The notes below the pieces were generated by a model. The model was not told the origin of the DNA. It saw nothing but the letters and a program-made list of their open reading frames with translations, and did not search any database. Position numbers and translations under genes: made by a program. A DNA stretch of 64,000 nucleotides from Candidatus Poribacteria bacterium (lineage in GTDB: Bacteria > Poribacteria > WGA-4E > PCPOR2b), in assembly GCA_965220385.1 (NCBI GenBank), contig OZ244825.1, forward strand, positions 777,142 to 841,141, given 5' to 3'. Below, piece after piece: positions 7,765 through 21,430 of this stretch. The first letter of the stretch is position 1. The number at the start of each line of letters is the position of its first letter.

Positions 7765-8847
7765 ATGATGACCGATCAGAAATCAGCGGACTACCGTGCG
7801 GCGATTATCGGCTGCGGGAGTATCGCTAACAGCCACGCCTCCGGCTATAATCGGACCGAGGCGACCGCGCTGGTCGCGTGTGCAGACACGGTAGAAGCGA
7901 AAGCAGCAGGTTTCGCCGAGCGAAACGCTATTCCTAACTACTACGCCGATTACCGAGCAATGCTTGACGTTGAGAAACCTGACATCGTGAGCGTCTGCAC
8001 GTGGCACCCCCTTCACGCAGAGATGACAATCGCTGCCGCGGCACGGCAGCCGAAGGCTATCCTCTGCGAGAAGCCGATGGCGACCAACCTGGGCGAGGCT
8101 GAAGCGATGATGATTGCCTGCCAGCGGAATCAGGTTAAATTGGTGATCGGTTTCCAGCGTCGATTTCTTGGGGCATGGACGGAAGCGAAAAATCTGATTG
8201 CATCCGGCGCAGTTGGCAAACCGGAACGGATATCACATACCCGTCTGACCGGGCTGCTCAATGCGAGTAGCCACGGGTTTGACTGTATGCGTTATATTCT
8301 GGGCGATCCCAAGGTGGAATGGGTCTTTGGTCAGGTGGAGCGGAAGACCGATCGGTACGAACGCAGTGTGCGTAGCGAGGATTGCGTGGCGGGATTCTTC
8401 CTATTTGAGGGCGGTGTGCAGGCGAGTTTCCAGACAGACGTTGTCCCCGAAAACAAATGGGCGTTTGTGCAGGGGACGGATGGGCTGATCGATTTCGACG
8501 ATGGTTGGATCCGCTACTTCAACGCTGAGACGGCTGGTTGGAAGGACGTAGAGGTTGAGGAAGTGGATGCGGCTGCTGCTCAGGTGGGGGAGTTGGTTGA
8601 GTGGATCGAAGATCGCTGCGTCCATCGCAACGAAGCGGAAAATGGTTTGTGGACGATGCACATGATGATGGGTGCCTACGAATCTGCCCGCTGCCACGAG
8701 GTGGTCCGTTTACCGATGCAAACCCGAGCGAACCCGCTCGATCTGATGGTGGAATCTGGACAGTTGCCGGTGCAATACCCCGGACGCTACGATATTCGCA
8801 GTTTCTTACTTGAGGGCGAAGCGATGAATCTGGAAGAGACTGAGTGA
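7765..8847 (+). CDS. Gfo/Idh/MocA-family NAD(P)-dependent oxidoreductase
   Basis: N-terminal Rossmann AIIGCGSIANSHA and the EKP motif (ILCEKPMA). Confidence 0.8.
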   Translation: MMTDQKSADYRAAIIGCGSIANSHASGYNRTEATALVACADTVEAKAAGFAERNAIPNYYADYRAMLDVEKPDIVSVCTWHPLHAEMTIAAAARQPKAILCEKPMATNLGEAEAMMIACQRNQVKLVIGFQRRFLGAWTEAKNLIASGAVGKPERISHTRLTGLLNASSHGFDCMRYILGDPKVEWVFGQVERKTDRYERSVRSEDCVAGFFLFEGGVQASFQTDVVPENKWAFVQGTDGLIDFDDGWIRYFNAETAGWKDVEVEEVDAAAAQVGELVEWIEDRCVHRNEAENGLWTMHMMMGAYESARCHEVVRLPMQTRANPLDLMVESGQLPVQYPGRYDIRSFLLEGEAMNLEETE

Positions 8848-9281: not shown

Positions 9282-10160
9282 ATGCACATTATGCGGTCTT
9301 GGATGTTTGTACCGGGACATCAGCAAAGGATGATTGATAAAGCCTACGAACTAAAACTGGATGTAGCGATGTTCGATCTGGAGGACGGGGTGCCGCCCGG
9401 CGAAAAGAATACCGCCCGCGCCATGATGGCGGAAACCCTTGCCCGTCCGTCTGATAGAATGCTCCGTTTTGTGCGTATCCACCCCATCGGAAGCAAGGAG
9501 ATAGAGTCGGATCTATCTGCCGTAATTCGTCCCGGTCTGGACGGACTCACGTTGACGAAGGTGAATTGCCCCGATGGTGTGTCCCAAGTCAGCGCGATTC
9601 TGGATGAGCGAGAGGAGATAGCTGGACTCCAACCGGGGAGTGTTCGTTTGCTCGCCACGATTGAGAGTGCTCGCGGGTTGATTCAGGCACCCGCGATCGC
9701 AGCATCCAGCCCCAGACTTGTCGGGCTGATGTTCGGTGCCGAAGATTTCGCGATGGATCTGGGGCTGTTCAACGTCCGCCAAGGCGAAGCGGGAGATTTC
9801 CTGTACGCCCGCTCTGCACTCGTCGTCGCTGCCGCCAGCGAACGGTTACAAGCGATAGATCGGGTCTATCTCGACATTCGGAATCCCGACGGATTGGAAA
9901 AAGACACACGGTTTGCCCGTGACCTCGGGTTCACCGGCAAAGCCTTAATTCACCCCGCCCAGATTGAGGTCGTAGAAAAAGTTTTCCATCCAACCGATGC
10001 GGAGGTTGAGTATGCTCGACGTGTGGTGGAAGCCTTTGAGGCGGCGGAAGCGGAAGGCGCCGGTGCGGTTGCTGTCGACGGTCAGATGGTCGATCTGCCT
10101 GTGGTGGAGCGTGCCCGGCGTGCCCTGCAGCTTGTATCTGAAAATCCCTCGGATAAATGA
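9282..10160 (+). CDS. HpcH/HpaI aldolase / citrate lyase beta-subunit (CitE)-like (citryl/malyl-CoA lyase family)
   Basis: N-terminus MRSWMFVPGH...LDVAMFDLEDGV is diagnostic of the CitE/HpcH fold. Confidence 0.7.
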   Translation: MHIMRSWMFVPGHQQRMIDKAYELKLDVAMFDLEDGVPPGEKNTARAMMAETLARPSDRMLRFVRIHPIGSKEIESDLSAVIRPGLDGLTLTKVNCPDGVSQVSAILDEREEIAGLQPGSVRLLATIESARGLIQAPAIAASSPRLVGLMFGAEDFAMDLGLFNVRQGEAGDFLYARSALVVAAASERLQAIDRVYLDIRNPDGLEKDTRFARDLGFTGKALIHPAQIEVVEKVFHPTDAEVEYARRVVEAFEAAEAEGAGAVAVDGQMVDLPVVERARRALQLVSENPSDK

Positions 10161-10166
10161 TTGTCA

Positions 10167-10560
10167 AAACGTAATACGTAAAGAAGATGTAACGCAAGGG
10201 GGCAAGGCCGCAAAGGAAAAAAGAGAGCGAAAAGAGAGAAGGCGGGAAAACGAGAAAACGAGAACGGAGGCATTTAGCCCCGGCGGGGCGGCATGTTTGT
10301 AGAATGTGGTATCACCCCACTAACAAAAGCCCCAGCGGGGCGACATGTGATACCGTAAAACGTAATACGTAAAGAAGATGTAACGCAAGGACGCAAAGAA
10401 AAAAAGAGAGCGAAAAGAGAGAAGGCGGGAAAACGAGAAAACGGGAACGGAAGCATTTAGCCCCAGCGGGGTGACATGTTTATAGAATGTGGTATCACCC
10501 CACTAACAAAAGCCCCGGCGGGGCGACATGTGTGTTTTCGCTCCAGCAGGACGATATGTC
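10167..10560. repeat. Two tandem copies (about 200 bp period) of a composite intergenic repeat: purine-rich tract plus MITE-like palindromic unit TTTAGCCCCGGCGGGGCGGCATGTTTGTAGAATGTGGTATCACCCCACTAACAAAAGCCCCAGCGGGGCGACATGTG
   Basis: 10167-10366 and 10367-10560 are nearly identical. The inner unit recurs at 36870-36905, 37048-37130 and 50068-50150. Confidence 0.85.
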
Positions 10561-10622
10561 CAATCTCGTACAGGTAGCGCCGGTATCTCCACTGTCGAAA
10601 CAAAAATAAAGGAGGAATACTC

Positions 10623-12047
10623 ATGAAGATCCCAAGAGACGATAAGGTTCGTATGCTTAGATTTGCCGTACAGTTTTTGCCAGCGATGATACCTCTTTTT
10701 TTCTCCTTGTATTTCTGGAAAAAGGGGTGGACTGAGCCTGTCATAACCTTTATGTTGCTAAGTATTGGACTGATATTATTAGGGGGCTTTCTGATTCTAG
10801 TCAAGAGGATCATAGGCAACGATAGGTATTTTGTGGTTATAGGTGGCGCTCTGCTTATTCTGATAGGGTTGTATTGCTGGATAGGCAGCGGTAATATCTA
10901 TACGAGCATATTTGCTGTATTGGTCGGTATGGCTGTAATATTAGGGGAGATGTTAAAAGAAAAGCGGTGGCAGATTAGTATCACTGTTGCATTAGTGCTC
11001 GCTGTAGGCACTATCATCTATCTGGAAGAAACCAGTGAAGATAAAGGACATGCTGTCGACAGCGAGGGGGGCGTACAGCAGGAGGTCGTGGATAAAGCAT
11101 CGGCACCCAGCGATGTTCCAAGCGGTGAACCCGCAGTTTCGGCTACATCCGAACAGTCGATGACTGATATGATGAATCGGTTCTTAACTCCTGAGCAACG
11201 TGAAAATCCAACATTCCAGAAAGTAATGAAGGTTATGGAGTCCGATTCATTTCAGAAGCAGATGCAGGAACAAGATCTGCGGACACCGCAAGAATTTATT
11301 GACCTCATGGCAGCACATGGATTAACGGAGTTTGCAGAGATAGATTATGATAAAATCATGGCTGATGCCTATGCCCTTTCCGCACAACAATACGCTACCG
11401 CAAACCCCGGTAAAGACCCCGCGGACGACGATGAGGTAATGGCAAAACGAATCGGAGAAAGCCTGAAGACCGCCGATCCTGTATATGGCATAATGGAAAT
11501 TATGCAGGATCGCGAGATTGCTCTGTGGATGAGTGCCCGTTTCAAAGGGGACCAAGCTGCGATGAGTGAGTGGTTGATGCCGGTGATGAAAGGCGCCGTA
11601 TCGGCTGACTCTGCAAATTCGTCGTCCGCACCAATGGATTTTGAATTCCCCGACGGGTTTTTGTCCGATAGCCCTCCTGACGAACCCACAGAGCAGCTCC
11701 CTTTCGTAGAATCGGAACCCTTACTATCTGACCCCAGCCCGACATCAACGCGGAAAGAGCCTTCCATCCCCGACACCGAAAAGAGTTCCGCAGCAGCACC
11801 AACGGTTGAACCGGAAAAGATTCTCACTGAACTGTCTCCAGAACCGCCTGCACTCCCTACGGACGAGGAACTTGAAACGGCGTTAAGGGAACGATTTTCG
11901 CCTGAGCGTTTCGAGCGGGCAATGACAACGTTGGAGCGGTATGGACCGGAAGAGGGACTTCGCCGCCTTCGAGAGGCTGATCCGGAAATCGCCAAGCAGA
12001 TGGAACGGCGCCGCAGTAGAGAAGGTGGAGAGCAGGATTCCCGATGA
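10623..12047 (+). CDS. Polytopic membrane protein with a long acidic disordered C-terminal region ending in a conserved EEGLRRLREADPE motif
   Basis: N-terminal hydrophobic helices; the C-terminal RYGPEEGLRRLREADPEIAKQ matches the C-terminus of the 13418 protein (YGTEEGLRRLRVSDPDAARQ). Confidence 0.5.
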   Translation: MKIPRDDKVRMLRFAVQFLPAMIPLFFSLYFWKKGWTEPVITFMLLSIGLILLGGFLILVKRIIGNDRYFVVIGGALLILIGLYCWIGSGNIYTSIFAVLVGMAVILGEMLKEKRWQISITVALVLAVGTIIYLEETSEDKGHAVDSEGGVQQEVVDKASAPSDVPSGEPAVSATSEQSMTDMMNRFLTPEQRENPTFQKVMKVMESDSFQKQMQEQDLRTPQEFIDLMAAHGLTEFAEIDYDKIMADAYALSAQQYATANPGKDPADDDEVMAKRIGESLKTADPVYGIMEIMQDREIALWMSARFKGDQAAMSEWLMPVMKGAVSADSANSSSAPMDFEFPDGFLSDSPPDEPTEQLPFVESEPLLSDPSPTSTRKEPSIPDTEKSSAAAPTVEPEKILTELSPEPPALPTDEELETALRERFSPERFERAMTTLERYGPEEGLRRLREADPEIAKQMERRRSREGGEQDSR

Positions 12048-12068
12048 AAGGGAGAAGGAGATTCAGTT

Positions 12069-12446
12069 ATGCCATTTGGAGAAAAGGTGCGCGAGTATAT
12101 CCTCAGGAACGTCGGGAAGTTGGGGATCGGTTGTGGGATAGGGATGATTTTGATGGGAGCGTATATTCTGATAATAGCGAGCAATGCAGGCAGGGGGTCT
12201 ATCTTTCATCCGGGCGCGGGCTATGTCCTACTGGGTATAAGTTTCATCACCATGAATCTCTTAGAGTGGAAGCCGTTGCTGATGCTTACCTGCACTGTGG
12301 TTGCGCTTGGACTCGCGCTGTTGCTACTCGTATTCAAGCCCGGAGATGAAACCGCTGAGCGCGCGGCGGTTGTGCAGCAGGAGGCTGTGGAAGCAGCGTC
12401 AAAGCCCAATGGAGTGCTAGATGACGCGGCGTCTCTTACGCGGTAG
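12069..12446 (+). CDS. Small integral membrane protein (3 predicted TM helices)
   Basis: An AAGGAG Shine-Dalgarno precedes the ATG; hydrophobic segments; stop lies in the conserved ...TR-TAG-GG context that precedes U element 1. Confidence 0.4.
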   Translation: MPFGEKVREYILRNVGKLGIGCGIGMILMGAYILIIASNAGRGSIFHPGAGYVLLGISFITMNLLEWKPLLMLTCTVVALGLALLLLVFKPGDETAERAAVVQQEAVEAASKPNGVLDDAASLTR

Positions 12447-12454
12447 GGAGAGCA

Positions 12455-12620
12455 TCTTCAATCAATACAGCTAGCGGTATCATACTCTTGTTTACGGGCA
12501 TAATATCGCTTTTTTGTGCTCACAAAACGCCACCCTTCGATTGCCTATGATGTGAGTCGGTTAAAACGATTCAAAACCTCCGCATCTTTTTCGTGGAATA
12601 TGGTAAATCAATAAGGGACT
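12455..12620 (+). promoter_or_regulatory. U element copy 1: hairpin/T-run terminator followed by a conserved about 100 bp module ending in an extended -10-like TGGTAAAT (degenerate copy)
   Basis: Aligns to the copies at 14436, 18122 and 20062: AGCGGTATCATAC...ATGATACCGCTTTTTTTGTGCTCAC...CAAAACCTCCCCATCTTTTTATCGGAATATGGTATAATCACGCA. Confidence 0.6.
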
Positions 12621-12667
12621 ATGTGTGCTTCGTACGGTTTTTTAGGGAACAGCGCCGTGTGCGATAA

Positions 12668-12820
12668 TGTTAGTAAAAGTTACTAACATTAGTAACATTT
12701 GCTAGCAATAGTTACTAATAACCGAGTTATTTCCTTCAACGACTTTTTAGACATTTCGCGCTTGAAGCCTGATGCCCACTGGGTTTGTGCGATTTTCGTT
12801 TCTTTTGGCATGTTAATTGC
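12668..12820 (+). promoter_or_regulatory. Sigma-54 promoter unit 1: UAS of TTAGTAA/TTACTAA palindromes (12668-12720) plus -24/-12 element TGGCATGTTAATTGCT (12805-12820)
   Basis: GG and GC spaced exactly as in the TGGCAC-N5-TTGC consensus. UAS palindromes sit about 100 bp upstream, the classic enhancer-binding-protein geometry. The unit is repeated at 16371-16523 and 18313-18451. Confidence 0.7.
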
Positions 12821-12995
12821 TTCTTATGGGTCTGTGGTTGAACACTTCAACCGTAACGCGTAGCGGAAAAGCATAGATTTTCAATGATTAGCTTATTCTC
12901 AAAGTGGGTGTGCTAAGACATTTTGTGAAGTTGAAAATCTTTCCTTTCTGGCCAGAATGCTAAACGCATTCTTAACAATTCAAAGGAAAAAGCAC

Positions 12996-13322
12996 ATGAA
13001 AAACTTAGGGGTTCTCTTCTGCGCCATTTCACTCGTCATGATGATCGGCCTAATGGTCGTATTTTTTACGGAACCCGCTGAAGCAGGAGCAGACGAGAAG
13101 ATAAGGGTAAAAAATGTTGTAAAATATTACGATGACTTTGACAATTACTGCCCTAACCTTTCATACACTAGAATCACCCTTGAACCAGTTGTATACAATG
13201 GATATGGTCACTACTATAACTACCATATAATGGGTAACTCGGGACACACTAGTCACAGTTATCAGATCGTGTCATGGGTCACCATTCATACAACTTTTAC
13301 CGTTGCTAGTTGTAATACTTAA
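12996..13322 (+). CDS. Small secreted/membrane-anchored protein (N-terminal signal/TM; Tyr/His/Asn-rich C-terminal half, 2 Cys)
   Basis: MKNLGVLFCAISLVMMIGLMVVFF signal-like N-terminus; first gene downstream of sigma-54 promoter 1. Confidence 0.45.
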   Translation: MKNLGVLFCAISLVMMIGLMVVFFTEPAEAGADEKIRVKNVVKYYDDFDNYCPNLSYTRITLEPVVYNGYGHYYNYHIMGNSGHTSHSYQIVSWVTIHTTFTVASCNT

Positions 13323-13417
13323 GCATCGTTAGAAAACTAGGCAGCCCAGCCTCTACTCGTGTCTCCGTAGGGGCTGGCAAAAAAACAGTTAAGCGATTCA
13401 GAAGGGACGGTATTTTG

Positions 13418-14422
13418 ATGCGAAAGGTTGTTCTATTGATCTCCGTGATAGTTATTCTAACAGCAGGCTGGATTTTCTACCTAAACCGGGAAAAAAAGAA
13501 CTTTATAGAGAATCTACCGCAATCCCCTGCGGTTGTTAACCAACCTATTAACAGTTCCTCTTCATCAGTAAATGAAAAGGAGGATTCTAGCTACTTTGTT
13601 GAAGTGGATGGGAAGAAATTCATTCCTGATGGCCGCCTGCATAAGACACTTCCACAGGAGCAGACCGCCTCCGCAGAAAAAACGTCTTCAGAAACGCCCA
13701 CTCCAGACGAGAAAGCAGATTTTGTGCGCGACCAATGGATTCAAATGTTTGGAGACATTCCACAGGTTCATGCCGCATCTGAGTACATGAGAAAAATATA
13801 CAAACGGGAACGTATGACAATTGATGAAGAGATTGCTGGCTTAGAAGCCTCACACTACCTATTTCCAGAGGGTGGGCATGGACTAATGTTGGCAATACGA
13901 AAGACTCAGAAAGCACAGGGGCTCGACGAGGACGACTTTGAGATCGTGTATGAGGAGGATTGGGAGAATGTAAGGCCTCCGCCGGGTTATAAGGAATATC
14001 ATTTTGGGAATGTACCTGAGCATCTCCGGTCCGATACCCCTGCACCTGATAGGATTTTTTCAGAAAGCATTGATGGAGATATAGACTTTCCTCCTGCTCG
14101 TTCTGAGGGGACTCCTGTAATGCCGGAACCTAAGACCTCAGTCACGTCTGACCATGTTCACCATGGAGATAGGCATGTACACGAACCGCCCACCCTCCAA
14201 CCGCCTGCACCGACAACTGCTAAAGGTGTTGAAGCGAACGGCTGGGAGGGGTTATCGTCTAAACAACGGGAGCAGGCGAAAGCGTTCTTTGACGAATATG
14301 GCACAGAGGAAGGGCTGCGGCGGTTGAGGGTGTCTGATCCTGACGCTGCGCGTCAATTTGGGCAGGAACGGCAGAAACCGCCTATCCCTTCCGAACCAAA
14401 TGATGAATCTTCTACGCAGTAG
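13418..14422 (+). CDS. Single-pass membrane-anchored protein with a disordered Pro/Glu-rich region and C-terminal EEGLRRLR...DP motif (paralogous at the C-terminus to the 10623 protein)
   Basis: N-terminal TM VVLLISVIVILTAGWIFYL; C-terminal FFDEYGTEEGLRRLRVSDPDAARQF. Confidence 0.5.
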   Translation: MRKVVLLISVIVILTAGWIFYLNREKKNFIENLPQSPAVVNQPINSSSSSVNEKEDSSYFVEVDGKKFIPDGRLHKTLPQEQTASAEKTSSETPTPDEKADFVRDQWIQMFGDIPQVHAASEYMRKIYKRERMTIDEEIAGLEASHYLFPEGGHGLMLAIRKTQKAQGLDEDDFEIVYEEDWENVRPPPGYKEYHFGNVPEHLRSDTPAPDRIFSESIDGDIDFPPARSEGTPVMPEPKTSVTSDHVHHGDRHVHEPPTLQPPAPTTAKGVEANGWEGLSSKQREQAKAFFDEYGTEEGLRRLRVSDPDAARQFGQERQKPPIPSEPNDESSTQ

Positions 14423-14435
14423 GGGCGGGCTTAAA

Positions 14436-14585
14436 TCCATACAACAGCGGTATCATACCCTGGTTCACGGGCATGATACCGCTTTTTTTGTGCTCACAGC
14501 GTGGTGTTAGGTAGCCGAAACGCCTCAAAACCTCCCCACCTTTTCATAGGAATATGGTATAATCACGCAGGTTATTATTTGAGAG
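14436..14585 (+). promoter_or_regulatory. U element copy 2 (terminator hairpin AGCGGTATCATACCC...GGCATGATACCGCTTTTTTT plus conserved module with TGGTATAAT)
   Basis: Best-conserved copy; perfect 11 bp stem followed by T7. Confidence 0.65.
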
Positions 14586-14881
14586 ATGTGCATAATGATT
14601 GCCCCGATGCTCCCCGATGCAGAGATCTGGACAGGAGTTACGGCATACGGCGTATGCCTACTACTATGGGCGGTGCACTGGGGTACGGGTTGAGCAAGAT
14701 ACTCAACCTACGGGTGTGGTATATTGTTGGGTTTCACTGTATCTATCTATAAGGGGTTGTCGAAAGGCGAAACCGCTATTGTGTTTGATATAGATTCGCT
14801 TTCAACCATTCAACCCAATCTACGTGACCGATAAATAGATTCAAACCGTTAAAACAGTATCATGATCTTGAGTTCCTGTGC

Positions 14882-15853
14882 CTACGAAATTCCCAACTTT
14901 TCCATCTTATAGCGGAAAGTGGAGTAAGGGATGCCGAGATTTTTTGCGGCTTGAGTGCGATTCCAATGGGTTTCTTCAAGTGCCTGTGTGATCTGATCGT
15001 GCTCGCTCTCGACTGCCGATTCGTCAGGTTGTGACGGCAGTTCTTCCAATGCCTCTCCTTGAATATCAAGATGCTCGATTCCTATCAACGAGATCTTGGG
15101 TGGACAGAGAACAGCGGTGCGCTCAACGATATTTCGCAGTTCACGGATGTTGCCGGGGTATTGATAATCCAGAAGGGACGATTTAGCCCCGTCTGAAAAG
15201 CCGTCGAAGCTGCGCCCTCTTCTGGCGGTGTATGCCGCTAGGAAATGGTCCACCAACGGCAGGATATCTTCTGTTCTTTCCCTAAGCGGTGTGAGGTGGA
15301 TAGGAAAGAGGTTGAGCCGATGGAATAGATCACTGCGGAACTGTCCAGATTTGACAAGTTGTGGCGGATCTCTGTTGAATGCACTGATAATATGTGCTTG
15401 AAAGGAGATCTCCTCGGTGCCGCCAAGCCGTCTCAGCGTCCGGGTGTCGAGAACCCGCAGCAACTTAGCTTGTATGTCGAGTGGGAGGTCAGCAATTTCA
15501 TCCAGCAGAAGCGTGCCGCTATCTGCTATCTCAAAGTAGCCGGGTTTATCCGTCGTTGCATCGGTGTATGCCCCTTTGACGTGGCCAAAGAGTTCGCTTT
15601 CGACCAACGACTCTGGCAATGCCGAACAGTTGACAGCGACAAACGGCTGCTCTTCCGAAGACCCTTGAAAATGAATTGCCCGTGCGACCACCTCTTTTCC
15701 TGTGCCCGTTTCGCCGGTGAGGAGAATCGTATCAACCTTTGCTGCGACCGCCTGCCGGATGCGTTCTCGTACCTCTTGCGTAGCTGAACTATCTCCCACA
15801 AGGAATCGGTTTTGTATCCGCGGATTGTGATAGCTCGTAGATCGATTATCCAT
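14882..15853 (-). CDS. Sigma-54-dependent transcriptional activator (bacterial enhancer-binding protein) with no N-terminal regulatory domain (PspF-like architecture: AAA+ domain plus C-terminal HTH)
   Basis: GETGTGKE Walker A, ESELFGHVKGAYTDA (GAFTGA-type sigma-54 contact loop), RELRN (sensor II) and C-terminal HTH NLGIPYSTFRYKMEKLGI. The AAA+ domain starts about 40 residues from the N-terminus, so no receiver/GAF/PAS domain. Start chosen at MDNRST after an AGAGGG Shine-Dalgarno. Confidence 0.8.
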   Translation of the reverse strand: MDNRSTSYHNPRIQNRFLVGDSSATQEVRERIRQAVAAKVDTILLTGETGTGKEVVARAIHFQGSSEEQPFVAVNCSALPESLVESELFGHVKGAYTDATTDKPGYFEIADSGTLLLDEIADLPLDIQAKLLRVLDTRTLRRLGGTEEISFQAHIISAFNRDPPQLVKSGQFRSDLFHRLNLFPIHLTPLRERTEDILPLVDHFLAAYTARRGRSFDGFSDGAKSSLLDYQYPGNIRELRNIVERTAVLCPPKISLIGIEHLDIQGEALEELPSQPDESAVESEHDQITQALEETHWNRTQAAKNLGIPYSTFRYKMEKLGIS

Positions 15854-15961
15854 TTGTCCCTCTCTTCTCGATAAACGCGGCTTGACTGTTTTATCCTCAA
15901 AAGAGTTGATGTATCGCATGGTCAGCTACTTTCGAGGTTCTCCACTGTTCCCATTTCCTTT

Positions 15962-16224
15962 CTATACTTAGTAAAGGATACAGGAGGACACAGACAGGGG
16001 GCAAATTTGTTTTCTTTAGTTTGAAACAAATAGTTTCAAGTTAAAAAAAATAAATTGATTCGTCTTAAAAAATAGTTCAAGCAGCTGCCGAATTTTTGTC
16101 AAGCATGGGCGAGGTGACCTCGCCCCTACAGTTGGCTGCGTAAGTTCTATACTCAAAAGGATACAAGAGGACGCAGACAGGATGCAAATTTAAAATCTTT
16201 AGAGTTAAACCAACAGTTTAACTC
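15962..16224. promoter_or_regulatory. Two copies (about 185 bp apart) of an about 80 bp element in the divergent promoter region of the bEBP gene, each carrying a perfect palindrome (TTGAAAC-N5-GTTTCAA; GAGTTAAAC-N5-GTTTAACTC)
   Basis: 15962-16040 and 16147-16224 align (CTATACT.A..AAGGATACA.GAGGAC.CAGACAGG..GCAAATTT...). A GGCGAGGTGACCTCGCC hairpin at 16108-16125 lies between them. Confidence 0.6.
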
Positions 16225-16370
16225 CTCCAAAAATAACTCGAATGGGGTGTGGGACACCCTGTGTTGAACGCTCGCTGAGGTCGACAAGGCGGTAGGATCC
16301 CATAAAATTTATCACAGGGAGTTCGCAGCGATGAAGGTCTTTGACTCCCTCTTGGGACTTATGCAGAAAA

Positions 16371-16523
16371 GTTAGCAATAGTTGCTAACATTAGCAATAG
16401 TTGCTAAGCAACAGTTGCTAATAATTGGGTTAACCGCTTCGGCGACTTTTTGCATATTTCGCCTTGAAAGCCTGATGTCCGCTGGGTTTGTGCGATTTTC
16501 GTTGCTTTTGGCATGATAATTGC
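16371..16523 (+). promoter_or_regulatory. Sigma-54 promoter unit 2: UAS TTAGCAATAGTTGCTAACATTAGCAATAGTTGCTAAGCAACAGTTGCTAA (16371-16430) plus -24/-12 TGGCATGATAATTGC (16509-16523)
   Basis: Consensus spacing exact; three TTAGCAA-N3-TTGCTAA palindromes about 90-140 bp upstream. Confidence 0.75.
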
Positions 16524-16656
16524 CCCTTATGAGTTTGTGGTTGAACCTTTCAACCATGATAAAGGATTTTCGATAGGTAGCGATTTGAATTATGAGTACA
16601 CAAGCATTGTATTGTGCAAATCGTAACACCACACACTTAATGAGAGGAGAGATACG

Positions 16657-17421
16657 ATGAAAACCATATTTGACGTGCTTCGTCACCCGCTGGTTATCGG
16701 TGCACTCGTATTGAGCATCCTCATTGTGGTAGGTGTGTATTTCGGAAGCCATTGGTACTATGGTGATGTTGAACCAGTTGAAATGCCGGAGGTTTCTGCA
16801 CCTGCTCCGCCCCTGCCTAAAAATCTTTCCGTCTCTGAAGTTGATTTGAGTGGTCTGGATGGGGAATCATCCCCACCGCAAACGGAATCAGAGCCTACAG
16901 TTTCGTCTGTGGAAGGCGAGTCGGTCGATGATTTCTTGGCAGAGCTATCGGATGAGGAGATGGCTCTGTTGACAGCTGAGGTGGTGGAACCTCAACGGGT
17001 TTCTCCCTTTGGCTTTGGTCCATATCCCCAAGTACCTTCAGATTTTCCCGAAGATCCCATTTGGGAAGAAGATATGGAAGCAAATATCTCACAATTTGGC
17101 AGCGAAGCGATGAAGGAAGCAGAATTGATGGATCGGGTTTTAATTCAACTCTGGAATCAGGGACATCGTGCTACTTCTGCGTCAAAGCACAGTAACGGGC
17201 TCGTCTATCCATCATTTCCCAACACGGTCTTTGTCCGATGGGACTACATAGAGGAAGAAGATGGGACAATTACTAAATATGCAAGGAGAATATCTAGTGG
17301 TGCGGAGGTATCAGATAGTGACCTTAATGATTTAGGGGAAGGGATTATTCCGCCCGGCATAAAGGTGCTTGACTATGATTCAGATGGAATAAATCCCTAC
17401 ACTTTTTTGAATCTTAACTAA
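16657..17421 (+). CDS. Single-pass membrane-anchored protein, family A (N-terminal TM, Pro/Ser/Glu-rich linker, conserved about 140 aa C-terminal domain ending PYTFLNLN)
   Basis: 77% paralog of the 18587 protein; GAGGAGAG Shine-Dalgarno; no recognisable domain. Confidence 0.6.
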   Translation: MKTIFDVLRHPLVIGALVLSILIVVGVYFGSHWYYGDVEPVEMPEVSAPAPPLPKNLSVSEVDLSGLDGESSPPQTESEPTVSSVEGESVDDFLAELSDEEMALLTAEVVEPQRVSPFGFGPYPQVPSDFPEDPIWEEDMEANISQFGSEAMKEAELMDRVLIQLWNQGHRATSASKHSNGLVYPSFPNTVFVRWDYIEEEDGTITKYARRISSGAEVSDSDLNDLGEGIIPPGIKVLDYDSDGINPYTFLNLN

Positions 17422-17435
17422 TAAGGAGAAATAAG

Positions 17436-17804
17436 ATGCGTAAACATTTTTTGGGTGTCTTGATAATCTGCTTTTTGTCTGTTTTTTCCGTGCTTTCTTT
17501 TGCAAAAAAATCCGGGCCGCTAACAGCTGAAGCTTCTATATACAAAAAACGAACACAGACAGTAGCCAAGGCGAAGGTTCAGGCGACAGTTGCAGCAAGG
17601 CATGGGGCGTGGGCAATATCCGCTGTCTCAGGGAATAACTCTGATGGCGATGCTGGACACTATCGATACGGACTATCTACCCAAGTTGTACACCCAAAAG
17701 ATTACACCTCACGCGCGTCAAATGCGAGGGCTAGCGCGTGGATTTCTGGACACGATCGGCATGGCAAGGCTTGGTTTGTACAAGATTCAAAACCTGACAA
17801 CTAG
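17436..17804 (+). CDS. Small secreted protein, family B (Sec signal peptide; mature about 95 aa with ...ASAWISGHDRHG... motif)
   Basis: MRKHFLGVLIICFLSVFSVLSFA signal peptide; TAAGGAG Shine-Dalgarno; homologous to the 19369 protein (shared NSDxD...TS.A.A.(A/S)WI(S/T)G(H/Y)(D/N)RH). Confidence 0.55.
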   Translation: MRKHFLGVLIICFLSVFSVLSFAKKSGPLTAEASIYKKRTQTVAKAKVQATVAARHGAWAISAVSGNNSDGDAGHYRYGLSTQVVHPKDYTSRASNARASAWISGHDRHGKAWFVQDSKPDN

Positions 17805-18121
17805 TATTTGGTGTTCGCAGACGTTTAACAGACCGGGGGTGTACCTTCAGATTTGAGGATATGCCCTCTTTTTTATGCTCCGTTTGCTCTAAACTTAATC
17901 AGCAGTTTTCCGAGGATACCAGCAATATCACGCGATAGCAGCATACCAGATTCTATAGCGCAATCTTCCGGACTGATTGAGCTAGGATTACTGCGCTACA
18001 GTCCGGGTATTTTCAGTTCACTAGAGACTCTAGCATAACGTGCTGGGTATTTGCGATTGGCGATCTGAAGGGGAACGACGCGAGTCGCTTGTTCATTCCG
18101 GTACGCAGTAGGGTAAACGTC

Positions 18122-18265
18122 TTCAATTAACACAACTAGCGGTATCATATCTTTTTTAGGGTTATGATACCGCTCTTTTGTGCTCACGGCGTGGCGTGAG
18201 TCAGCTAAAGCACCTCAAAACCTCCCCATCTTTTTATCGGAATACGGTATAATTACCAGGCTGCT
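18122..18265 (+). promoter_or_regulatory. U element copy 3
   Basis: AGCGGTATCATATC...GTTATGATACCGCTCTTTTGTGCTCACGGCGTGGCGTGAGTCAGCTAAAGCACCTCAAAACCTCCCCATCTTTTTATCGGAATACGGTATAAT. Confidence 0.65.
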
Positions 18266-18312
18266 ACTCGTGCTTCATGCGGCTTTCCAGAAACATCGGT
18301 GTGTGCAGAAAA

Positions 18313-18451
18313 GTTAGTAATTGTTGCTAACATTAGCAACAGTTGCTAATAATTGGGTTAACCGCTTCGGCGACTTTTTGCATATTTCGCCTTGAAAGCC
18401 TGATGTCCGCTGGGTTTGTGCGATTTTCGTTTCTTTTGGCATGTTAATTGC
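18313..18451 (+). promoter_or_regulatory. Sigma-54 promoter unit 3: UAS palindromes (18313-18350) plus -24/-12 TGGCATGTTAATTGC (18437-18451)
   Basis: About 95% identical to unit 2 over roughly 280 bp, including the long leader. Confidence 0.75.
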
Positions 18452-18586
18452 TTCTTATGAGTCTGTGGTTGAACCCTTCAACCATGATAAAGGATTTTCG
18501 ATAGGTAGCGATTTGAATTATAAGTACACAAGCACTGTACCGTGTAATTTCTAACACTGTACACTTAAATGAGAGGAGAGCGTACG

Positions 18587-19357
18587 ATGAAAACGGTACT
18601 TGACCTGCTTCGTCACCCGTTGGTTCTCGGTGCACTCGTATTGAGCATCCTCATTGTGGTTGGTGTGTATTTCGGAAGCCATTGGTACTATGGTGATGTT
18701 GAACCAGTTGAGATACCGGAGATCTCCGCTCCTACTCCCGCCCTGCCTAAAAAATCTGCCTCCTCTGAAGTTGATTTGAGTGGCTTACAAGGGGAATCAT
18801 TGACACTGGAAACGGAATCAACGCCTACAGCACCGTCTATGGCAGTCGAGTCGGTCGATGATTTCTTAGCAGAGCTATCGGCTGAAGAGAAAGTACTGTT
18901 GACGGCGGAAGTGGTGGAAGATACGCAGCCGGTTTCCCCATTCGGTTTTGGTCCATATCCCCAAGTACCTTTAGACTTTCCCAGAGATCCCATCTGGGAA
19001 GCAGTCGAGATGTACGAAAAAATCAATCAACATGGACGTGGTATGATGAAGGCAATAGAATTGATGGATCGGGTTGTAATAAAACTCTGGAATCAGGGGC
19101 ATAGAGCAAGCTCTGCGTCAATGAGTAAAGGACGCGTCTATCCGGGATTTCCCAACACGGTTTATGTCCGATGGAGTTACATTGAAGAACCAGATGGGAC
19201 AATTACTCGATATGCAGGACGAAAAACGAGTGGGCCGGACATCCCCGAAAGTGTCTTTGATGCTTTAAGTGAGGGGATTGTCCCACCCGGCATAACCGTA
19301 CTTGATCATGATGCTGATGGAATAGATCCTTACACTTTTTTGAATCTTAATCAATAA
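18587..19357 (+). CDS. Single-pass membrane-anchored protein, family A (paralog of the 16657 protein)
   Basis: MKTVLDLLRHPLVLGALVLSILIVVGVYFGSHWYYGDVEPVE... is near-identical at the N-terminus and conserved in the C-terminal domain. Confidence 0.6.
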   Translation: MKTVLDLLRHPLVLGALVLSILIVVGVYFGSHWYYGDVEPVEIPEISAPTPALPKKSASSEVDLSGLQGESLTLETESTPTAPSMAVESVDDFLAELSAEEKVLLTAEVVEDTQPVSPFGFGPYPQVPLDFPRDPIWEAVEMYEKINQHGRGMMKAIELMDRVVIKLWNQGHRASSASMSKGRVYPGFPNTVYVRWSYIEEPDGTITRYAGRKTSGPDIPESVFDALSEGIVPPGITVLDHDADGIDPYTFLNLNQ

Positions 19358-19368
19358 GGAGAAATAAA

Positions 19369-19767
19369 ATGCGTATACGTTTTTGGGTCGGTTCGATAAT
19401 CTGCCTTGGTTCAATAATCTGTCTTTTGGTTACTTTTTCCGTACTTACCTCGATAAGCCACGCGGCAGGTTGTGACGAGTCAGAGTGTGACGAAGGGGTC
19501 TGTGCTAGTGCGAGGATAAGTGGTGGGGCAGAGCTAAAAGCAAGAGGGGTCGTGCGTGCTCCGAACAACTGTTGGGGCGGCTGGGGGATAAACGTGCGCG
19601 CTGGAACTAACAGTGACAGCGATTCAGACTATTACACAGGTGGGACAAGGAACGATCTGGAGGTTAAGCAGCATACGAGCCAAGCGAAAGCAACCTCGTG
19701 GATTACTGGGTATAATAGGCATGACGAGTCTTATTATGCCAATGCCTGTGATGAGTCTGGTGGTTGA
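19369..19767 (+). CDS. Small secreted Cys-rich protein, family B (paralog of the 17436 protein)
   Basis: Signal peptide, 6 Cys, conserved ...ATSWITGYNRHDES... motif; identical TAAGGAGAAATAAAATG ribosome-binding-site context to the 17436 gene. Confidence 0.55.
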   Translation: MRIRFWVGSIICLGSIICLLVTFSVLTSISHAAGCDESECDEGVCASARISGGAELKARGVVRAPNNCWGGWGINVRAGTNSDSDSDYYTGGTRNDLEVKQHTSQAKATSWITGYNRHDESYYANACDESGG

Positions 19768-19892
19768 TTCATCTGCAAAGCACGGACTGTTGACATTTTG
19801 TGCTTGAGATTTGTATAGTAACAGCGATTTCGCCGGAGTAGGCTTGTTAGGTATTGCTTAACAAGTTCAAGTTTTTTACAAACCCATATCAT

Positions 19893-19950
19893 AAAAAACG
19901 GGATGGATACCGTATCGCCTATCTTGTGGTGTCCAACCCGTTTTTTGTGC
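19893..19950. terminator. Bidirectional rho-independent terminator hairpin (AAAAAACGGGATGGATACC...GGTGTCCAACCCGTTTTTT)
   Basis: 13-14 bp imperfect stem flanked by an A-run and a T-run, downstream of the 19369 gene. Confidence 0.55.
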
Positions 19951-20061
19951 CCAAGATCCGAAAAAACTTCATATTTCCCCTGTGGATGTTTCTTTACGTC
20001 CGGTGATGAAATATCTCTAGTTAAAAGGGAGTCTGCGCTCTTGACACAGTAGGGCTGTGTC

Positions 20062-20212
20062 CTAAATCAATACAACCCGCGGCATCATACTCTTTTTTCA
20101 GGGGATATGATACCGCTTTTTTTGTGCTCACAGCGTGGCGTGAGTCGGCTAAAGTGCTTCAAAACCTCCCCATCTTTTTATCGGAATATGGTATAATCAC
20201 GCAAGTTGTTAT
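20062..20212 (+). promoter_or_regulatory. U element copy 4, immediately upstream of the sucC-like gene
   Basis: CGCGGCATCATAC...GATATGATACCGCTTTTTTTGTGCTCACAGCGTGGCGTGAGTCGGCTAAAGTGCTTCAAAACCTCCCCATCTTTTTATCGGAATATGGTATAATCACGCA. Confidence 0.65.
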
Positions 20213-20230
20213 CTATCAGAAGGGAAAGCG

Positions 20231-21430
20231 ATGAGACTCCTCGAACATCAAAGCAAAAAATTACTCTCCAACTTCGGATTAGCTTTCACGGACTCGACGC
20301 TGGTTAACTCAATGGGTGAGGTGCGAGCAACCGTTGAGCGTGTCGGGCTGCCCGTTGTCCTGAAGGCGCAGACCCCTTTCGGTGGACGTGGGAACATCGG
20401 GGCGGTGAAGTTCGCGGAGACCGTGGATCAAGCCGTCATCGCGGCAAAGGCTTTGTTCGGGATGGACGTGCGCGGCACAATCGTTGACGTGGTTTCGATT
20501 GAACCGAGGCTAAACTACGAACGCGAGTTTTACGTTGGTATTACATGGGATACGGTCGCAAAGCTGCCGGTTGTACTATTGAGCCTCGCCGGTGGTGTGG
20601 ATGTTGAATCCTCCCAGAGCGATCAGGGCGCACGTCAGTCATTTGACCCGTGGACGGGACTCGCACCTTATGAGGCGAGAGGATTGGCCGCCAAAGTTGG
20701 ATTAACGGGAAAAACCTTCTTGGGAGTCGGGGATACTCTTACCAAGTTGTCGGGAGCGTTTCTCGCCTGCGATGCCGTCACGATGGAGATCAATCCGTTA
20801 GTCGTTATCGAGGACGAGACACTTATCGGGCTTGATGCGCGCCTAGAGATTGAGGACGAGGCGGTGTATCGGCAGCGGAAACGGTTGGAGCCGTTGGGCG
20901 AACTGACGGTGACCGCAGCGGGTCGTCCGCCCACGCCTCTGGAACTGGAGGCACAACGTATCGATGCAATAGACCATCGGGGCGTTGCCGGACGCGTGGT
21001 CGAATTTGACGGCGATCTCGCCCTCCTGATCGGTGGCGGCGGCGCAAGCCTGACCGTTTTCGACGCAATCAAAGCGCACGGCGGAAGTCCGGCGAACTAC
21101 TGCGAAGTAGGCGGAAACCCGACGGAGGAGAAGGTTGCTGCCATAACATCGCTCCTGCTATCAAAGCCGGGAGTGAAGGGGCTGGCAGTTATCATGAATG
21201 TGGTCAACAACACCCGTGCGGATGTCATCGCTCGCGGTGTCCTCATGGGGGTCGAGACCGCAGGAAGAAAACCCGCGGAGACAATCAGCCTCTTCCGTGT
21301 CCCCGGCAACTGGGAGGCGGAAGCGCGGGAGATCATGGAGGCAGCCGGCGTCGAAGTCTACGGACGCGAGGTGTCGTTAGATACGGCTGCCCGGTTGGCT
21401 GTTGAAAGGAATCGCGCCCATGCTGCTTGA
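20231..21430 (+). CDS. ADP-forming succinyl-CoA synthetase beta-subunit-like ATP-grasp protein (SucC/MtkA/CcsA family)
   Basis: N-terminus MRLLEHQSKKLLSNFGL...VVLKAQ...GGRG pattern matches SucC; translationally coupled to the alpha-like subunit. Confidence 0.7.
   Translation: MRLLEHQSKKLLSNFGLAFTDSTLVNSMGEVRATVERVGLPVVLKAQTPFGGRGNIGAVKFAETVDQAVIAAKALFGMDVRGTIVDVVSIEPRLNYEREFYVGITWDTVAKLPVVLLSLAGGVDVESSQSDQGARQSFDPWTGLAPYEARGLAAKVGLTGKTFLGVGDTLTKLSGAFLACDAVTMEINPLVVIEDETLIGLDARLEIEDEAVYRQRKRLEPLGELTVTAAGRPPTPLELEAQRIDAIDHRGVAGRVVEFDGDLALLIGGGGASLTVFDAIKAHGGSPANYCEVGGNPTEEKVAAITSLLLSKPGVKGLAVIMNVVNNTRADVIARGVLMGVETAGRKPAETISLFRVPGNWEAEAREIMEAAGVEVYGREVSLDTAARLAVERNRAHAA

Follow-up and report, generated by a model that had tools for sequence, protein, structure and literature searches.

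The window analysed here, a 64-kb stretch of chromosome from a sponge-symbiont-type bacterium, Candidatus Poribacteria, holds a block of genes between an HpcH/citrate-lyase-beta-like gene and a gene pair resembling both subunits of succinyl-CoA or citryl-CoA synthetase. As an earlier sequence-only reading had noted, the block is AT-richer than its flanks, with a GC content of 0.44-0.51 inside and 0.54-0.61 outside. All eight of its ORFs are intact, and seven have an entry of identical length in the public protein collection. The genes in and around the block, in window coordinates, are:

10623-12047, plus strand: A0, 474 aa, multi-TM N-terminus; public gene call of the same length
12069-12446, plus strand: M0, small multi-TM membrane protein, 125 aa
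12996-13322, plus strand: S1, Sec-type secreted protein, 108 aa; ORF with a public gene call of 108 aa
13415-14422, plus strand: A1, 335 aa, N-terminally anchored, with a His-rich segment and a conserved C-terminal EEGLRRLR module
14882-15853, minus strand: sensor-less enhancer-binding protein; public gene call of 323 aa, with the ORF reaching 15919
16657-17421, plus strand: A2, family A, 254 aa
17436-17804, plus strand: S2, family B, 122 aa, signal peptide and predicted eight-strand beta-sandwich
18587-19357, plus strand: A3, family A, 256 aa, 71% identical to A2
19369-19767, plus strand: S3, family B, 132 aa
20231-21430: citrate-binding ATP-grasp (succinyl-CoA-synthetase-beta-like) gene

Two related genes, A0 and M0, lie just 5' of the block start given earlier. 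The C-terminal 'YGPEEGLRRLR..DPE' module of A0 is common to A1, which its C-terminal 115 aa match at E 6e-11; against Pfam, A0 gave nothing above cut-off. In L005 and L010, both related genomes, a homologue of M0 adjoins the activator gene. The six exported cargo products were said to lack a recognisable domain, and searches of Pfam, NCBIfam and PADLOC returned no match for them. Their proposed grouping into two or three paralogous families has to be replaced by four families, since S1 and A1 are unrelated to families B and A: neither S1 against S2/S3 nor A1 against A2/A3 showed detectable homology by BLAST or hhalign (probability ~1%). S1 constitutes a separate family; among the fetched loci, only L037 has a homologue, a fragment of 57 aa. 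The expected order of an anchored followed by a secreted protein holds for A2-S2 and A3-S3; in unit 1 it is reversed, S1 preceding A1, and the cassettes hence are not uniform.

The block contains three homologous regulatory units (12660-12860, 16362-16656 and 18304-18586) with the following elements:

12670-12718, plus strand: unit 1 enhancer (UAS), three TTAGTAA-N3-TTACTAA-type palindromes, overlapping or adjacent
12806-12821, plus strand: unit 1 sigma-54 -24/-12 element, TGGCATGTTAATTGCT, GG-N10-GC spacing
12836-12852, plus strand: hairpin/palindrome GGTTGAAC-N-TTCAACC, just 3' of the predicted unit 1 transcription start
15973-16036 and 16156-16219: two copies of a 64-nt element, between activator gene and unit 2
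16372-16421, plus strand: unit 2 enhancer, three TTAGCAA-N3-TTGCTAA palindromes
16509-16524, plus strand: unit 2 sigma-54 -24/-12 element, TGGCATGATAATTGCC, GG-N10-GC spacing
16539-16555 and 18467-18483: further copies of the GGTTGAAC-N-TTCAACC element
18314-18349, plus strand: unit 3 enhancer, two palindromes
18437-18452, plus strand: unit 3 sigma-54 -24/-12 element, TGGCATGTTAATTGCT, GG-N10-GC spacing

An identity of 85-95% had been assigned to all three units. Units 2 and 3 come close to this (89% in the core, 84% over the whole unit); unit 1 is only ~79% identical to the others in the core from the enhancer to +30. Because its leader is only ~35% identical, conservation of the leader of about 130 nt is limited to units 2 and 3. 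The palindrome arrays and promoters of the sequence-only reading were recovered throughout. With at most one mismatch, TTAGYAA-N3-TTRCTAA has 8 matches against 0.01 expected, every one within the three units and at about -137 to -104, and each unit has its -24/-12 element with GG-N10-GC spacing (at 12806, 16509 and 18437). Seven further genomes of Candidatus Poribacteria (L001, L005, L007, L008, L010, L026 and L037) keep the entire regulatory unit, at the same place in the chromosome. Enhancer, spacer and -24/-12 element are conserved across species, and the palindrome arms covary symmetrically (TTAGTAA..TTACTAA vs TTAGCAA..TTGCTAA). The strict sigma-54 consensus has 55 matches in 1.02 Mb of related loci, where ~4 would be expected, and almost all of them fall on the gene strand; 21 of the 55 lie directly 5' of family-A genes, an association that had been suggested as a check. 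Neither the 64-kb window nor the fetched related loci contain rpoN.

The GGTTGAAC-N-TTCAACC hairpin is the sole stable stem in the leader fold. It is retained across 10 copies of the promoter; two of its G-C pairs are changed to A-T in a compensatory manner, and some positions are mismatched. Besides the enhancer, there are other palindrome types, one conserved further upstream and another at about +10 to +30, which we counted against the model given below. Each copy of the 64-nt element terminates in a palindrome with 9-bp arms, and one to three copies occur at the same place in L001, L005, L008 and L026; the element may serve the activator gene as operator or promoter, or represent a small RNA.

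The activator carries the Pfam domains Sigma54_activat (3.7e-62), AAA_lid_14 and HTH_8, the latter a Fis-type C-terminal HTH, and has no N-terminal sensor domain, in agreement with the proposal that the block encodes its own sensor-less enhancer-binding protein. It stays under every cut-off of the NCBIfam equivalogs. The sigma-54-contacting loop of its AAA+ domain reads GAYTDA; GAYTDA or GAFTDA rather than GAFTGA likewise counted against the model. Orthologues with 76-82% identity adjoin HpcH at the same position in L001, L005, L008 and L026. From the position and symmetry of the TTAGYAA-N3-TTRCTAA palindromes, we infer that they bind this activator.

The block is further interspersed with promoter-like elements of a different kind:

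12437-12610, plus strand: U1, terminator hairpin and promoter module with a degenerate -10 (TAAATC)
14415-14565, plus strand: U2, hairpin AGCGGTATCAT...ATGATACCGCTTTTTTT plus TGGTATAAT
18100-18260, plus strand: U3, from the U-copy alignment and core motif
19790-19867, plus strand: TTGACA-N18-TATAGT, then a hairpin
20050-20200, plus strand: U4, at the presumed native position immediately 5' of the citrate-binding ATP-grasp gene

Alignment of the four U copies, of ~150 bp each, showed that within the window they are confined to the block, as claimed before, and the core motif TCAAAACCTCC.CA.CTTTT has 4 matches against 0 expected. The elements read as a terminator followed by an extended -10 sigma-70 promoter. 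They do not seem to be a special punctuation of the block; they rather look like duplicates of a neighbouring housekeeping-type promoter/terminator. The core motif is found 5' of the ATP-grasp gene in L005, L007 and L026, 5' of a 119-aa fragment of this gene in L037, and 5' of A1-like genes in L001, L005, L026 and L037; in L001, a 5' fragment of this gene is duplicated. U is probably the ATP-grasp gene's own promoter region, spread into the block by tandem duplication. Since the extended -10 promoters of U2 and U3 are intact, sigma-70 read-through into unit 3 is possible. The element at 19790-19867 is homologous to the B-to-A spacer of a five-cassette array in L006 and therefore probably is the remnant of an array junction. 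Non-coding stretches are present 3' of S2 and of S3. In related loci, the recurrent gene order is HpcH - activator - A - B - (A1-like) - ATP-grasp gene, with varying cassette number. The block is probably a hypervariable accessory island that grew by tandem duplication of one module, consisting of a 3' gene end with terminator and extended -10 sigma-70 promoter (U), enhancer and sigma-54 promoter, and cassette.

In the predicted model of A2, a TM anchor (residues 11-35) is followed by a disordered acidic linker (36-89) and a conserved alpha/beta C-terminal domain (~115-254); the confident model of this 140-aa domain had no match among solved structures. Family A is restricted to Poribacteria; clustering at 50% identity divides it into 578 clusters. 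Family B (S2, S3) is modelled as a secreted Ig-like beta-sandwich, with no match to any PDB sequence. When cassettes are compared, the A C-domain is better conserved than B in 97% of cases, and both divergences track each other. NG86 dN/dS values were 0.2-1.5 for mature B and 0.08-0.5 for the A C-domain; gene-wide values near 1 could reflect relaxed constraint rather than positive selection. In 72 of 121 scorable cases, family A is followed by family B, another family A or another ORF with a signal-like N-terminus; a recognisable family-B gene lies 3' of only about one quarter of family-A genes. Tandem arrays in related loci reach up to five A+B pairs, and sigma-54 activators and ECF sigma factors are enriched among family-A neighbours. 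Adjacency and co-divergence suggest that A and B work together as cognate partners, in the periplasm or at the surface, and that they are under diversifying pressure.

Taken as a whole, an activator-driven sigma-54 island with exported A/B cargo and an origin by tandem duplication is the explanation we favour, with moderate confidence. The sensor-less activator probably switches on the membrane-anchored and secreted proteins of the island. As a dimer or oligomer, it would occupy the palindromes ~100-140 bp 5' of the three sigma-54 promoters and, by ATP hydrolysis, open sigma-54 closed complexes, turning on S1-A1, A2-S2 and A3-S3. As it has no sensor domain, output would be set by its amount or, in trans, by a putative anti-activator, as is the case with HrpS and PspF. 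All cargo products would be exported. Family A would be held in the inner membrane by its N-terminus, with a long acidic linker and the conserved domain of unrecognised fold facing the periplasm; the Sec-secreted family B would co-diversify with its neighbouring A gene, several times faster. Diversifying pressure might arise, e.g., at an interface with host, phage or competitors. Our best guess is that the cargo forms a module of the periplasm or surface that can be induced and is under such pressure. The earlier description as a self-contained accessory block of exported proteins under control of sigma-54 and an enhancer-binding protein agrees with the conservation of the unit across species.

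Family A, with or without B as co-receptor or decoy, might instead be the missing sensor of an external ligand that feeds back on adjacent input-less regulators, sensor-less activators or ECF sigma factors. Short sensor-less activators adjoin family A in L034, L035, L041, L044 and L055, and ECF sigma genes lie directly 5' of A in L006, L009, L047, L056, L060 and L071, a slot usually occupied by an anti-sigma gene. However, only ~10-20 cytoplasmic residues of A precede the membrane helix, which leaves no room for any known domain of anti-sigma or anti-activator type; a separate small zinc-finger anti-sigma-like ORF is already present in L006 and L009, and five-pair arrays would be unusual for a sensor. 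We thus consider this unlikely. Somewhat more doubtful still is a Psp-like envelope-stress response, in which the activator would be the counterpart of PspF and the anchored proteins, like PspB/PspC, would act as stress effectors or sensors. The architecture is of PspF type (AAA+ and HTH without regulatory domain), PspF models match partially (TIGR02974, 265 bits), PADLOC reports an RtcR_PspF2 match, the cargo is membrane or periplasmic, and ECF sigma factors (extracytoplasmic-function regulators) often adjoin family A. Yet the PspF equivalog cut-offs are missed (265 vs 443.55 bits and 235 vs 529 bits), Pfam and NCBIfam found PspA/IM30, PspB or PspC domains in no island protein, and stress effectors normally are conserved, not usually hypervariable, variable in copy number and confined to one lineage.

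Fast evolution of B, its co-divergence with A and the five-pair arrays would also suit a bacteriocin-immunity array, a polymorphic arsenal created by duplication, with B as lactococcin-972-like toxins and A as their immunity factors. We hold this to be improbable: B has no sequence match to Lactococcin_972, other Pfam families or any PDB sequence, and the presumed immunity gene A is clearly under purifying selection. Lactococcin-972 clusters contain an ABC transporter and a DUF1430-type membrane immunity system, and neither was seen here; moreover, a Sec-exported protein in a diderm stays periplasmic without a further exporter, of which the island has none. Decaying duplication debris, with sigma-54-like motifs and palindromes as passive passengers and non-functional small ORFs, would account for the AT-richness and the degenerate pieces (U1 -10, stretches after S2 and S3, promoter remnant at 19790), but is already largely refuted by the intact ORFs with their public entries, purifying selection and cluster number of family A, confident structure models and the regulatory unit conserved in seven other genomes, and deserves hardly any credence.

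Returning to the favoured sigma-54 island, the sequence-only reading was aware of no system described as organised in this way; a sensor-less activator with a palindrome at about -138/-125 is, however, the HrpS/hrpL design (PMC8657755), and also that of PspF. HrpS has no N-terminal domain and a GAYTGA loop; the palindrome that it binds, TGCAA-N4-TTGCA, lies at -138/-125 of a promoter with GG-N10-GC spacing (PMC8657755). As in HrpS (and HrpR)/sigma-54/hrpL of Pseudomonas syringae, Erwinia and Dickeya, the island activator consists of AAA+ and HTH without a sensing domain, its loop contains Tyr (with Asp in GAYTDA where HrpS has Gly), its TTAGCAA-N3-TTGCTAA sites at -137 to -104 lie similarly, and the circuit controls proteins that a host-associated bacterium exports. 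The HrpS to HrpL step has a parallel in L006, where the ECF sigma factor gene 5' of the five A+B pairs is controlled by a sigma-54 promoter. In contrast to Hrp, the island has neither type III secretion genes nor HrpV or HrpG partners, and the sigma-54 promoters of the window directly drive cargo genes, not a single sigma-factor gene; the activator stays under all curated equivalog cut-offs. PspF/pspABCDE shares the sensor-less activator gene divergent from or beside its operon and the envelope-associated targets; in contrast to it, the island has no PspA, PspB or PspC, its activator stays below the PspF model cut-offs, and its cargo is lineage-specific, multi-copy and fast-evolving. The predicted family B fold resembles the CsgC/CsgH periplasmic curli inhibitors (CsgH) and lactococcin 972 only at the level of a generic beta-sandwich; from the latter it also differs in sequence, length (mature B ~95 aa vs 66 aa), cell-envelope type and gene neighbourhood. 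Francke et al. reportedly described sigma-54 in 2011 as a 'controller of the bacterial exterior', and known sigma-54 regulons, host-associated bacteria included, often comprise envelope or secreted proteins, as does the island. The Chlamydia sigma-54 regulon is described as one of membrane proteins and type III effectors (PMC7482065). Such regulons mostly consist of recognisable families, unlike the unannotated, Poribacteria-restricted cargo of the island. The control circuit of the island is of a known kind; its cargo proteins are undescribed, one of them evolving very fast.

Eight open reading frames on the plus strand and one on the minus strand make up the island at 10.6–20.2 kb:

10623-12047, plus strand: A0, 474 aa, with a multi-TM N-terminus
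12069-12446, plus strand: M0, a small membrane protein of 125 aa
12996-13322, plus strand: S1, 108 aa, with a signal peptide
13415-14422, plus strand: A1, 335 aa, anchored at its N-terminus
14882-15919, minus strand: the sigma-54 activator, an ORF of 345 aa
16657-17421, plus strand: A2, 254 aa, anchored protein of family A
17436-17804, plus strand: S2, 122 aa, secreted protein of family B
18587-19357, plus strand: A3, 256 aa, family A
19369-19767, plus strand: S3, 132 aa, family B

Seven of the nine proteins are identical to entries in public protein collections (the exceptions are A1 and S3), none of them named; A2 corresponds to P0001, and the public gene call gives the activator 323 aa (14882-15853). 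When all nine were compared with Pfam, NCBIfam and PADLOC, the activator alone had significant matches, in agreement with the sequence-only reading, which had recognised no domain in the six cassette products. As that reading had also held, the block is AT-richer than its flanks, with a GC content of 0.44-0.51 vs 0.54-0.61. Low GC is not island-specific, since AT-rich patches elsewhere in the window hold unrelated genes, namely a 308-aa ORF without an assigned family at 3182-4108 and a 331-aa ORF, transposase-like by eye, at 52791-53786. The island is flanked upstream by an HpcH/HpaI (citrate-lyase-beta-like) gene and downstream by a citrate-binding ATP-grasp gene, a CoA-ligase alpha-like gene and a TonB-receptor-like gene. 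The gap from the HpcH stop codon to A0 contains a direct repeat in tandem, with units of about 185 bp (10166-10349 and 10357-10532) that are 94% identical. The repeat is purine-rich (GAAAAGAGAGAAGGCGGGAAAACGAGAAAACG), shows on its minus strand hairpins that are rich in GC and carry T-runs (GCCCCGCNGGGGC TTTTGTTAGT), and had no Rfam match. Over the whole window Rfam gave nothing at gathering thresholds, and at E up to 1 the stretch 10100-20300 gave a single sub-threshold match, inside the activator gene.

The three regulatory units (12660-12860, 16362-16656 and 18304-18586) had been described as 85-95% identical and as sharing a conserved leader of 130 nt. This holds for units 2 and 3, which align at 89% identity from the enhancer to about +30 and at 84% overall, but not for unit 1, which reaches about 79% against either of them in the enhancer-to-+30 core and only about 35% in the leader. 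The proposed palindrome arrays were borne out, as TTAGYAA-N3-TTRCTAA with at most one mismatch occurs eight times in the 64 kb, every time inside units 1-3, where 0.01 occurrences would be expected. With positions counted from where the -24 element starts, the palindromes occupy -137 to -104, within the distance of about 80-150 bp expected between an upstream activator site and a sigma-54 promoter. The -24/-12 elements themselves also stood up: TGGCAC-N5-TTGCW, with strict GG-N10-GC spacing, is exact at 12806 and 18437 and has one mismatch at 16509, and it is kept in orthologous loci. We found the regulatory unit in seven other Poribacteria genomes (L001, L005, L007, L008, L010, L026 and L037; such numbers denote related loci with family-A genes), where palindrome order, the spacer GCCTGATGCCCACTGGGTTTGGGCGATTTTCGT, the -24/-12 element and a downstream GGTTGAAC..TTCAACC hairpin are all retained. 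Among copies the palindrome arms vary symmetrically (TTAGTAA/TTACTAA vs TTAGCAA/TTGCTAA), the pattern expected from constraint by a dimeric DNA-binding protein. The hairpin shows two compensatory changes, and mismatches too. The unit-3 leader as a whole is unlikely to be a riboswitch or other structured RNA, since it folds no better than its shuffles (z -0.36) and only the 5' hairpin is stable. An RpoN box was absent from the 64-kb window and from 1 Mb of related loci, a result that is uninformative on rpoN in the genome.

The interval that separates the activator gene from the first family-A promoter also holds one to three copies of a conserved element of about 64 nt:

15973-16036 and 16156-16219 in the window
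8918, 9313 and 9493 in L001
5495 in L005
5382 and 5562 in L008
4869, 5335 and 5515 in L026

It consists of AAAGGATACAnGAGGACnCAGACAGG, ATGCAAATTT and a palindrome with 9-bp arms (for example, GTTTGAAAC-N5-GTTTCAAAC or GAGTTAAAC-N5-GTTTAACTC), in which the arms vary among copies and complementarity is kept. The spacer that holds it is 1.6 kb long without a called gene in L001, and the matching gap in L008 and L026 is 1.3-1.4 kb. The element could be an operator or promoter of the activator gene, or mark small-RNA genes.

The activator has the domains of a sigma-54 enhancer-binding protein. Sigma54_activat matches residues 40-208 of the 345-aa ORF at E 3.7e-62 (209 bits vs a cut-off of 20.2 bits), and the C-terminal Fis-type helix-turn-helix HTH_8 matches residues 304-342 at E 9.9e-14; together with AAA_lid_14 these are its only Pfam domains. 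Only about 17 (323-aa call) to 39 (345-aa ORF) residues precede the AAA+ domain, and Pfam finds no N-terminal receiver, GAF, PAS or V4R domain, which fits the PspF/HrpR/HrpS-type subgroup. The block hence does encode its own sensor-less enhancer-binding protein, as had been suggested. It is not a PspF equivalog (TIGR02974, 265 vs 443.55 bits; PRK11608, 235.5 vs 529), it stays under every NCBIfam equivalog cut-off, PspF included, and Pfam and NCBIfam reveal no PspA-like protein among the island proteins. The sigma-54-contacting loop, GAFTGA in the reference motif, reads GAYTDA in the window activator and GAFTDA or GAYTDA in its orthologues; we know of no functional variant with Asp at position 5. 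From the arrangement of the locus, the activator would bind the TTAGYAA-N3-TTRCTAA palindromes and, acting from these enhancers, probably turns on the island's sigma-54 promoters.

The cargo is more heterogeneous than the two or three paralogous families first proposed. A2 and A3 share 71% identity, and S2 and S3 30% (E 6e-14). In profile–profile comparison A1 and S1 stand apart (hhalign probability about 1% each for A1 in family A and S1 in family B), so that the six cassette products fall into four families. A0 resembles A1 only over a C-terminal module of some 115 aa (E 6e-11). A conserved C-terminal module of about 45 aa, RFSPERFxRAxxTLxxYGPEEGLRRL+..DPE[IV]A, recurs in several anchored or exported proteins of Poribacteria that are not related in other respects; it lacks a Pfam match and might serve in docking or sorting:

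A0, residues about 430-465
A1, residues about 285-320
L010, 3686-4915
L028, 2653-4116
L073, 15-683

The family-A model comprises about 10 residues with Lys and Arg, a membrane helix (11-35), a disordered acidic linker (36-89) and an alpha/beta domain at about 115-254 (pLDDT about 90), a confidently modelled domain for which no counterpart was found among solved structures. Its invariant residues (S116, D129, W136, E156, R160, W166, D202, G203, plus several Pro and Gly) give no hint of catalysis. Family A does not fit a classical membrane-bound anti-sigma factor, which would have a cytoplasmic N-terminal domain of about 50-90 residues before the helix vs the 10-20 residues present here, and Pfam gave no zf-HC2 or RskA match. 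The family-B model (pLDDT 85.6) shows a signal helix and eight long antiparallel strands, predicted to form a generic Ig-like sandwich, a fold that does not assign a function. Family B does not combine membership in Pfam Lactococcin_972 with an ABC/DUF1430 immunity system, as a Lactococcin 972 bacteriocin would, nor does it pair the sequence family of the curli inhibitors CsgC/CsgH with a curli (csgA/B/E/F/G) gene context. Profile searches of PDB sequences with the alignments of both families returned nothing at E up to 10.

Family A is large and nearly confined to one lineage. We found 198 close relatives of A2 and 506 with the family-A profile, and an exhaustive profile search of 1.84 billion representatives gave 578 clusters at 50% identity, nearly all of about 250 aa; a second large-database search returned essentially the same best 120 matches and no annotation. 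A scan of one genome per species yielded 182 matching stretches, and the 78 loci kept are all from Candidatus Poribacteria except two records titled ‘uncultured bacterium’. The order HpcH, activator (minus strand), A, B recurs in L001, L005, L008 and L026, with fragments of it in the fetched parts of L007 and L010. Cassette number varies among genomes: extra cassettes follow the first A–B pair in L001, L005 and L026, in the latter two of which the ATP-grasp gene comes after them, and L006 has a tandem array of five A+B pairs at a different site. Between its cassettes, L001 has a 115-aa piece duplicated from the 5' part of the ATP-grasp gene.

Across 30 A+B pairs, B was less conserved than the neighbouring A C-domain in 97% of comparisons, and the two divergences correlate. 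By Nei-Gojobori estimates, dN/dS ranged from 0.08 to 0.5 in the A C-domain and from 0.2 to 1.5 in mature B, where several unsaturated comparisons lay at or above 1. These rates would fit diversifying selection or relaxed constraint on B and purifying selection on A. We also surveyed the ORFs (at least 60 aa, starting at most 150 nt downstream) behind 121 scorable family-A genes, one further gene being too near the locus end; the categories sum to 123 vs a stated total of 122, and category counts are used. A recognisable family-B gene followed in 30 cases, a second family-A gene in 2, an ORF without a signal-like N-terminus in 17 and no qualifying ORF in 33, while 40 were followed by another ORF with a signal-like N-terminus, a loose heuristic that is positive for 38% of background ORFs. 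A and B might be cognate partners in the periplasm or at the cell surface, with diversifying pressure acting on the pair.

The sequence-only reading had seen the block as punctuated by a U element. Its four copies (12437-12610, 14415-14565, 18100-18260 and 20050-20200) do align across about 150 bp and occur nowhere else in the window, each with the following parts in order:

end of a gene, final codons with the stop: ACGCAGTAG
T-run hairpin: AGCGGTATCAT...ATGATACCGCTTTTTTT
conserved box: TCAAAACCTCCCCATCTTTT
extended -10: TGGTATAAT, degenerate in U1

U lies directly upstream of the ATP-grasp gene in L005, L007 and L026 and of an ATP-grasp fragment in L037, and also upstream of A1-like genes in L001, L005, L026 and L037. 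U is therefore best read as the ATP-grasp gene's own terminator and sigma-70 promoter region, copied with each cassette: a footprint of tandem duplication rather than a dedicated punctuation signal. A dispersed mobile repeat does not agree with its confinement, within the window, to the block, and otherwise to orthologous promoters in related genomes. Behind S3, a TTGACA-N18-TATAGT with a hairpin (19790-19867) is homologous to the spacer from B to A in the L006 array and, on that basis, is probably an array-junction remnant. Tandem duplication probably built the island, and the locus illustrates how an accessory island can grow via repeated copying of a neighbouring housekeeping-type promoter and terminator. 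With tblastn of all island proteins, no pseudogene remnants were found between cassettes (14423-14881, 17805-18300 and 19768-20230). Past U2, whose promoter is intact, roughly 315 bp (14566-14881) run convergently up to the activator gene's 3' end; they contain no convincing ORF and no match to any island protein; a predicted U2 transcript through them would be antisense to the activator-gene end.

Elsewhere, too, family-A genes keep company with regulators. Family-A loci totalling 1.02 Mb contain 55 matches to the strict sigma-54 consensus vs about 4 expected (about 14-fold), nearly always on the gene strand; 21 sites lie directly upstream of family-A genes, and further ones precede small exported proteins, an ECF sigma gene and an activator gene. 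Among the two nearest family-A neighbours in 74 loci, the commonest Pfam families were WD40 (9-10 of 131 proteins), ECF sigma (9) and sigma-54 activators (8), and several of these activators are likewise sensor-less. In L034, a PD40 propeller follows immediately after two A genes. Other family-A promoters carry different palindromes: in L073 (about 2985-3030 and 7805-7850), TGGAAAG-N3-CTTTCCA at -102 and -60 and a related CTTTCCA-N2-TGGAAAG at about -69, and in L055 (about 5800), TCTGTCCA-N2-TGGACAGA at -70 of a sigma-54 promoter. These differences hint at a separate enhancer sequence for every paralogue of the sensor-less activator. In L006 (4949-12586), an ECF sigma gene (5122-5664) has a consensus sigma-54 promoter (TGGCACATAAATTGCT) in front of it and is followed by a 90-aa ORF, which carries an anti-sigma zinc-finger motif (H-x3-C-x2-C), and then by the five A+B pairs. 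This resembles a cascade from sigma-54 to an ECF sigma factor, and in L009 the same sigma/anti-sigma pair precedes the array. Just upstream of family-A genes, L040 (422-3598) and L043 (2610-5393) have ORFs of about 930-1060 aa matching the ECF sigma profile; oversized for ECF sigma factors, they may encode fusion proteins.

Poribacteria are uncultivated and mostly associated with sponges, and to our knowledge almost nothing is known of their gene regulation or host-exposed products. Our literature search for Poribacteria together with sigma-54 met both terms only in work on a sponge pathogen. One activator, a defined palindromic enhancer and three near-identical sigma-54 promoters make a testable circuit, open to reconstitution in a heterologous host. 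Two unannotated families, A with about 580 clusters at 50% identity and the Ig-like B with a gene-wide dN/dS near 1, are reasonable candidates for host-, phage- or competitor-facing roles. We may speculate, while considering it rather unlikely in its entirety, that A and B form an undescribed Poribacteria-specific envelope module, in which a membrane-tethered periplasmic A domain of new fold works with a positively selected, Ig-like secreted cognate B; multiplied into tandem arrays of variable size, the module would provide variation at the surface or in the periplasm towards sponge host, phages or competitors; its dedicated, input-less regulators would be sensor-less sigma-54 activators or ECF sigma factors. 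If the cargo were an ordinary periplasmic stress module, the value of the locus would be confined to annotating a lineage-specific family.

The feature is thus real, and its cargo consists of undescribed, lineage-restricted families. Its regulation is of a known, HrpS/PspF-like kind, contrary to the initial view that no system of such organisation had been described. PspF is one model of a sensor-less sigma-54 activator. HrpR and HrpS are the other: according to a published review, they have no N-terminal sensing domain, the HrpS loop is GAYTGA, and the sigma-54 promoter of hrpL has an HrpS site, TGCAA-N4-TTGCA, at -138/-125 (PMC8657755). By architecture and geometry, HrpS/hrpL is the nearest known design to the island's circuit; Tyr at loop position 3 is common to HrpS (GAYTGA) and the island activator (GAYTDA), and the order of sigma-54 promoter and ECF sigma gene in L006 echoes the HrpS-to-HrpL cascade.
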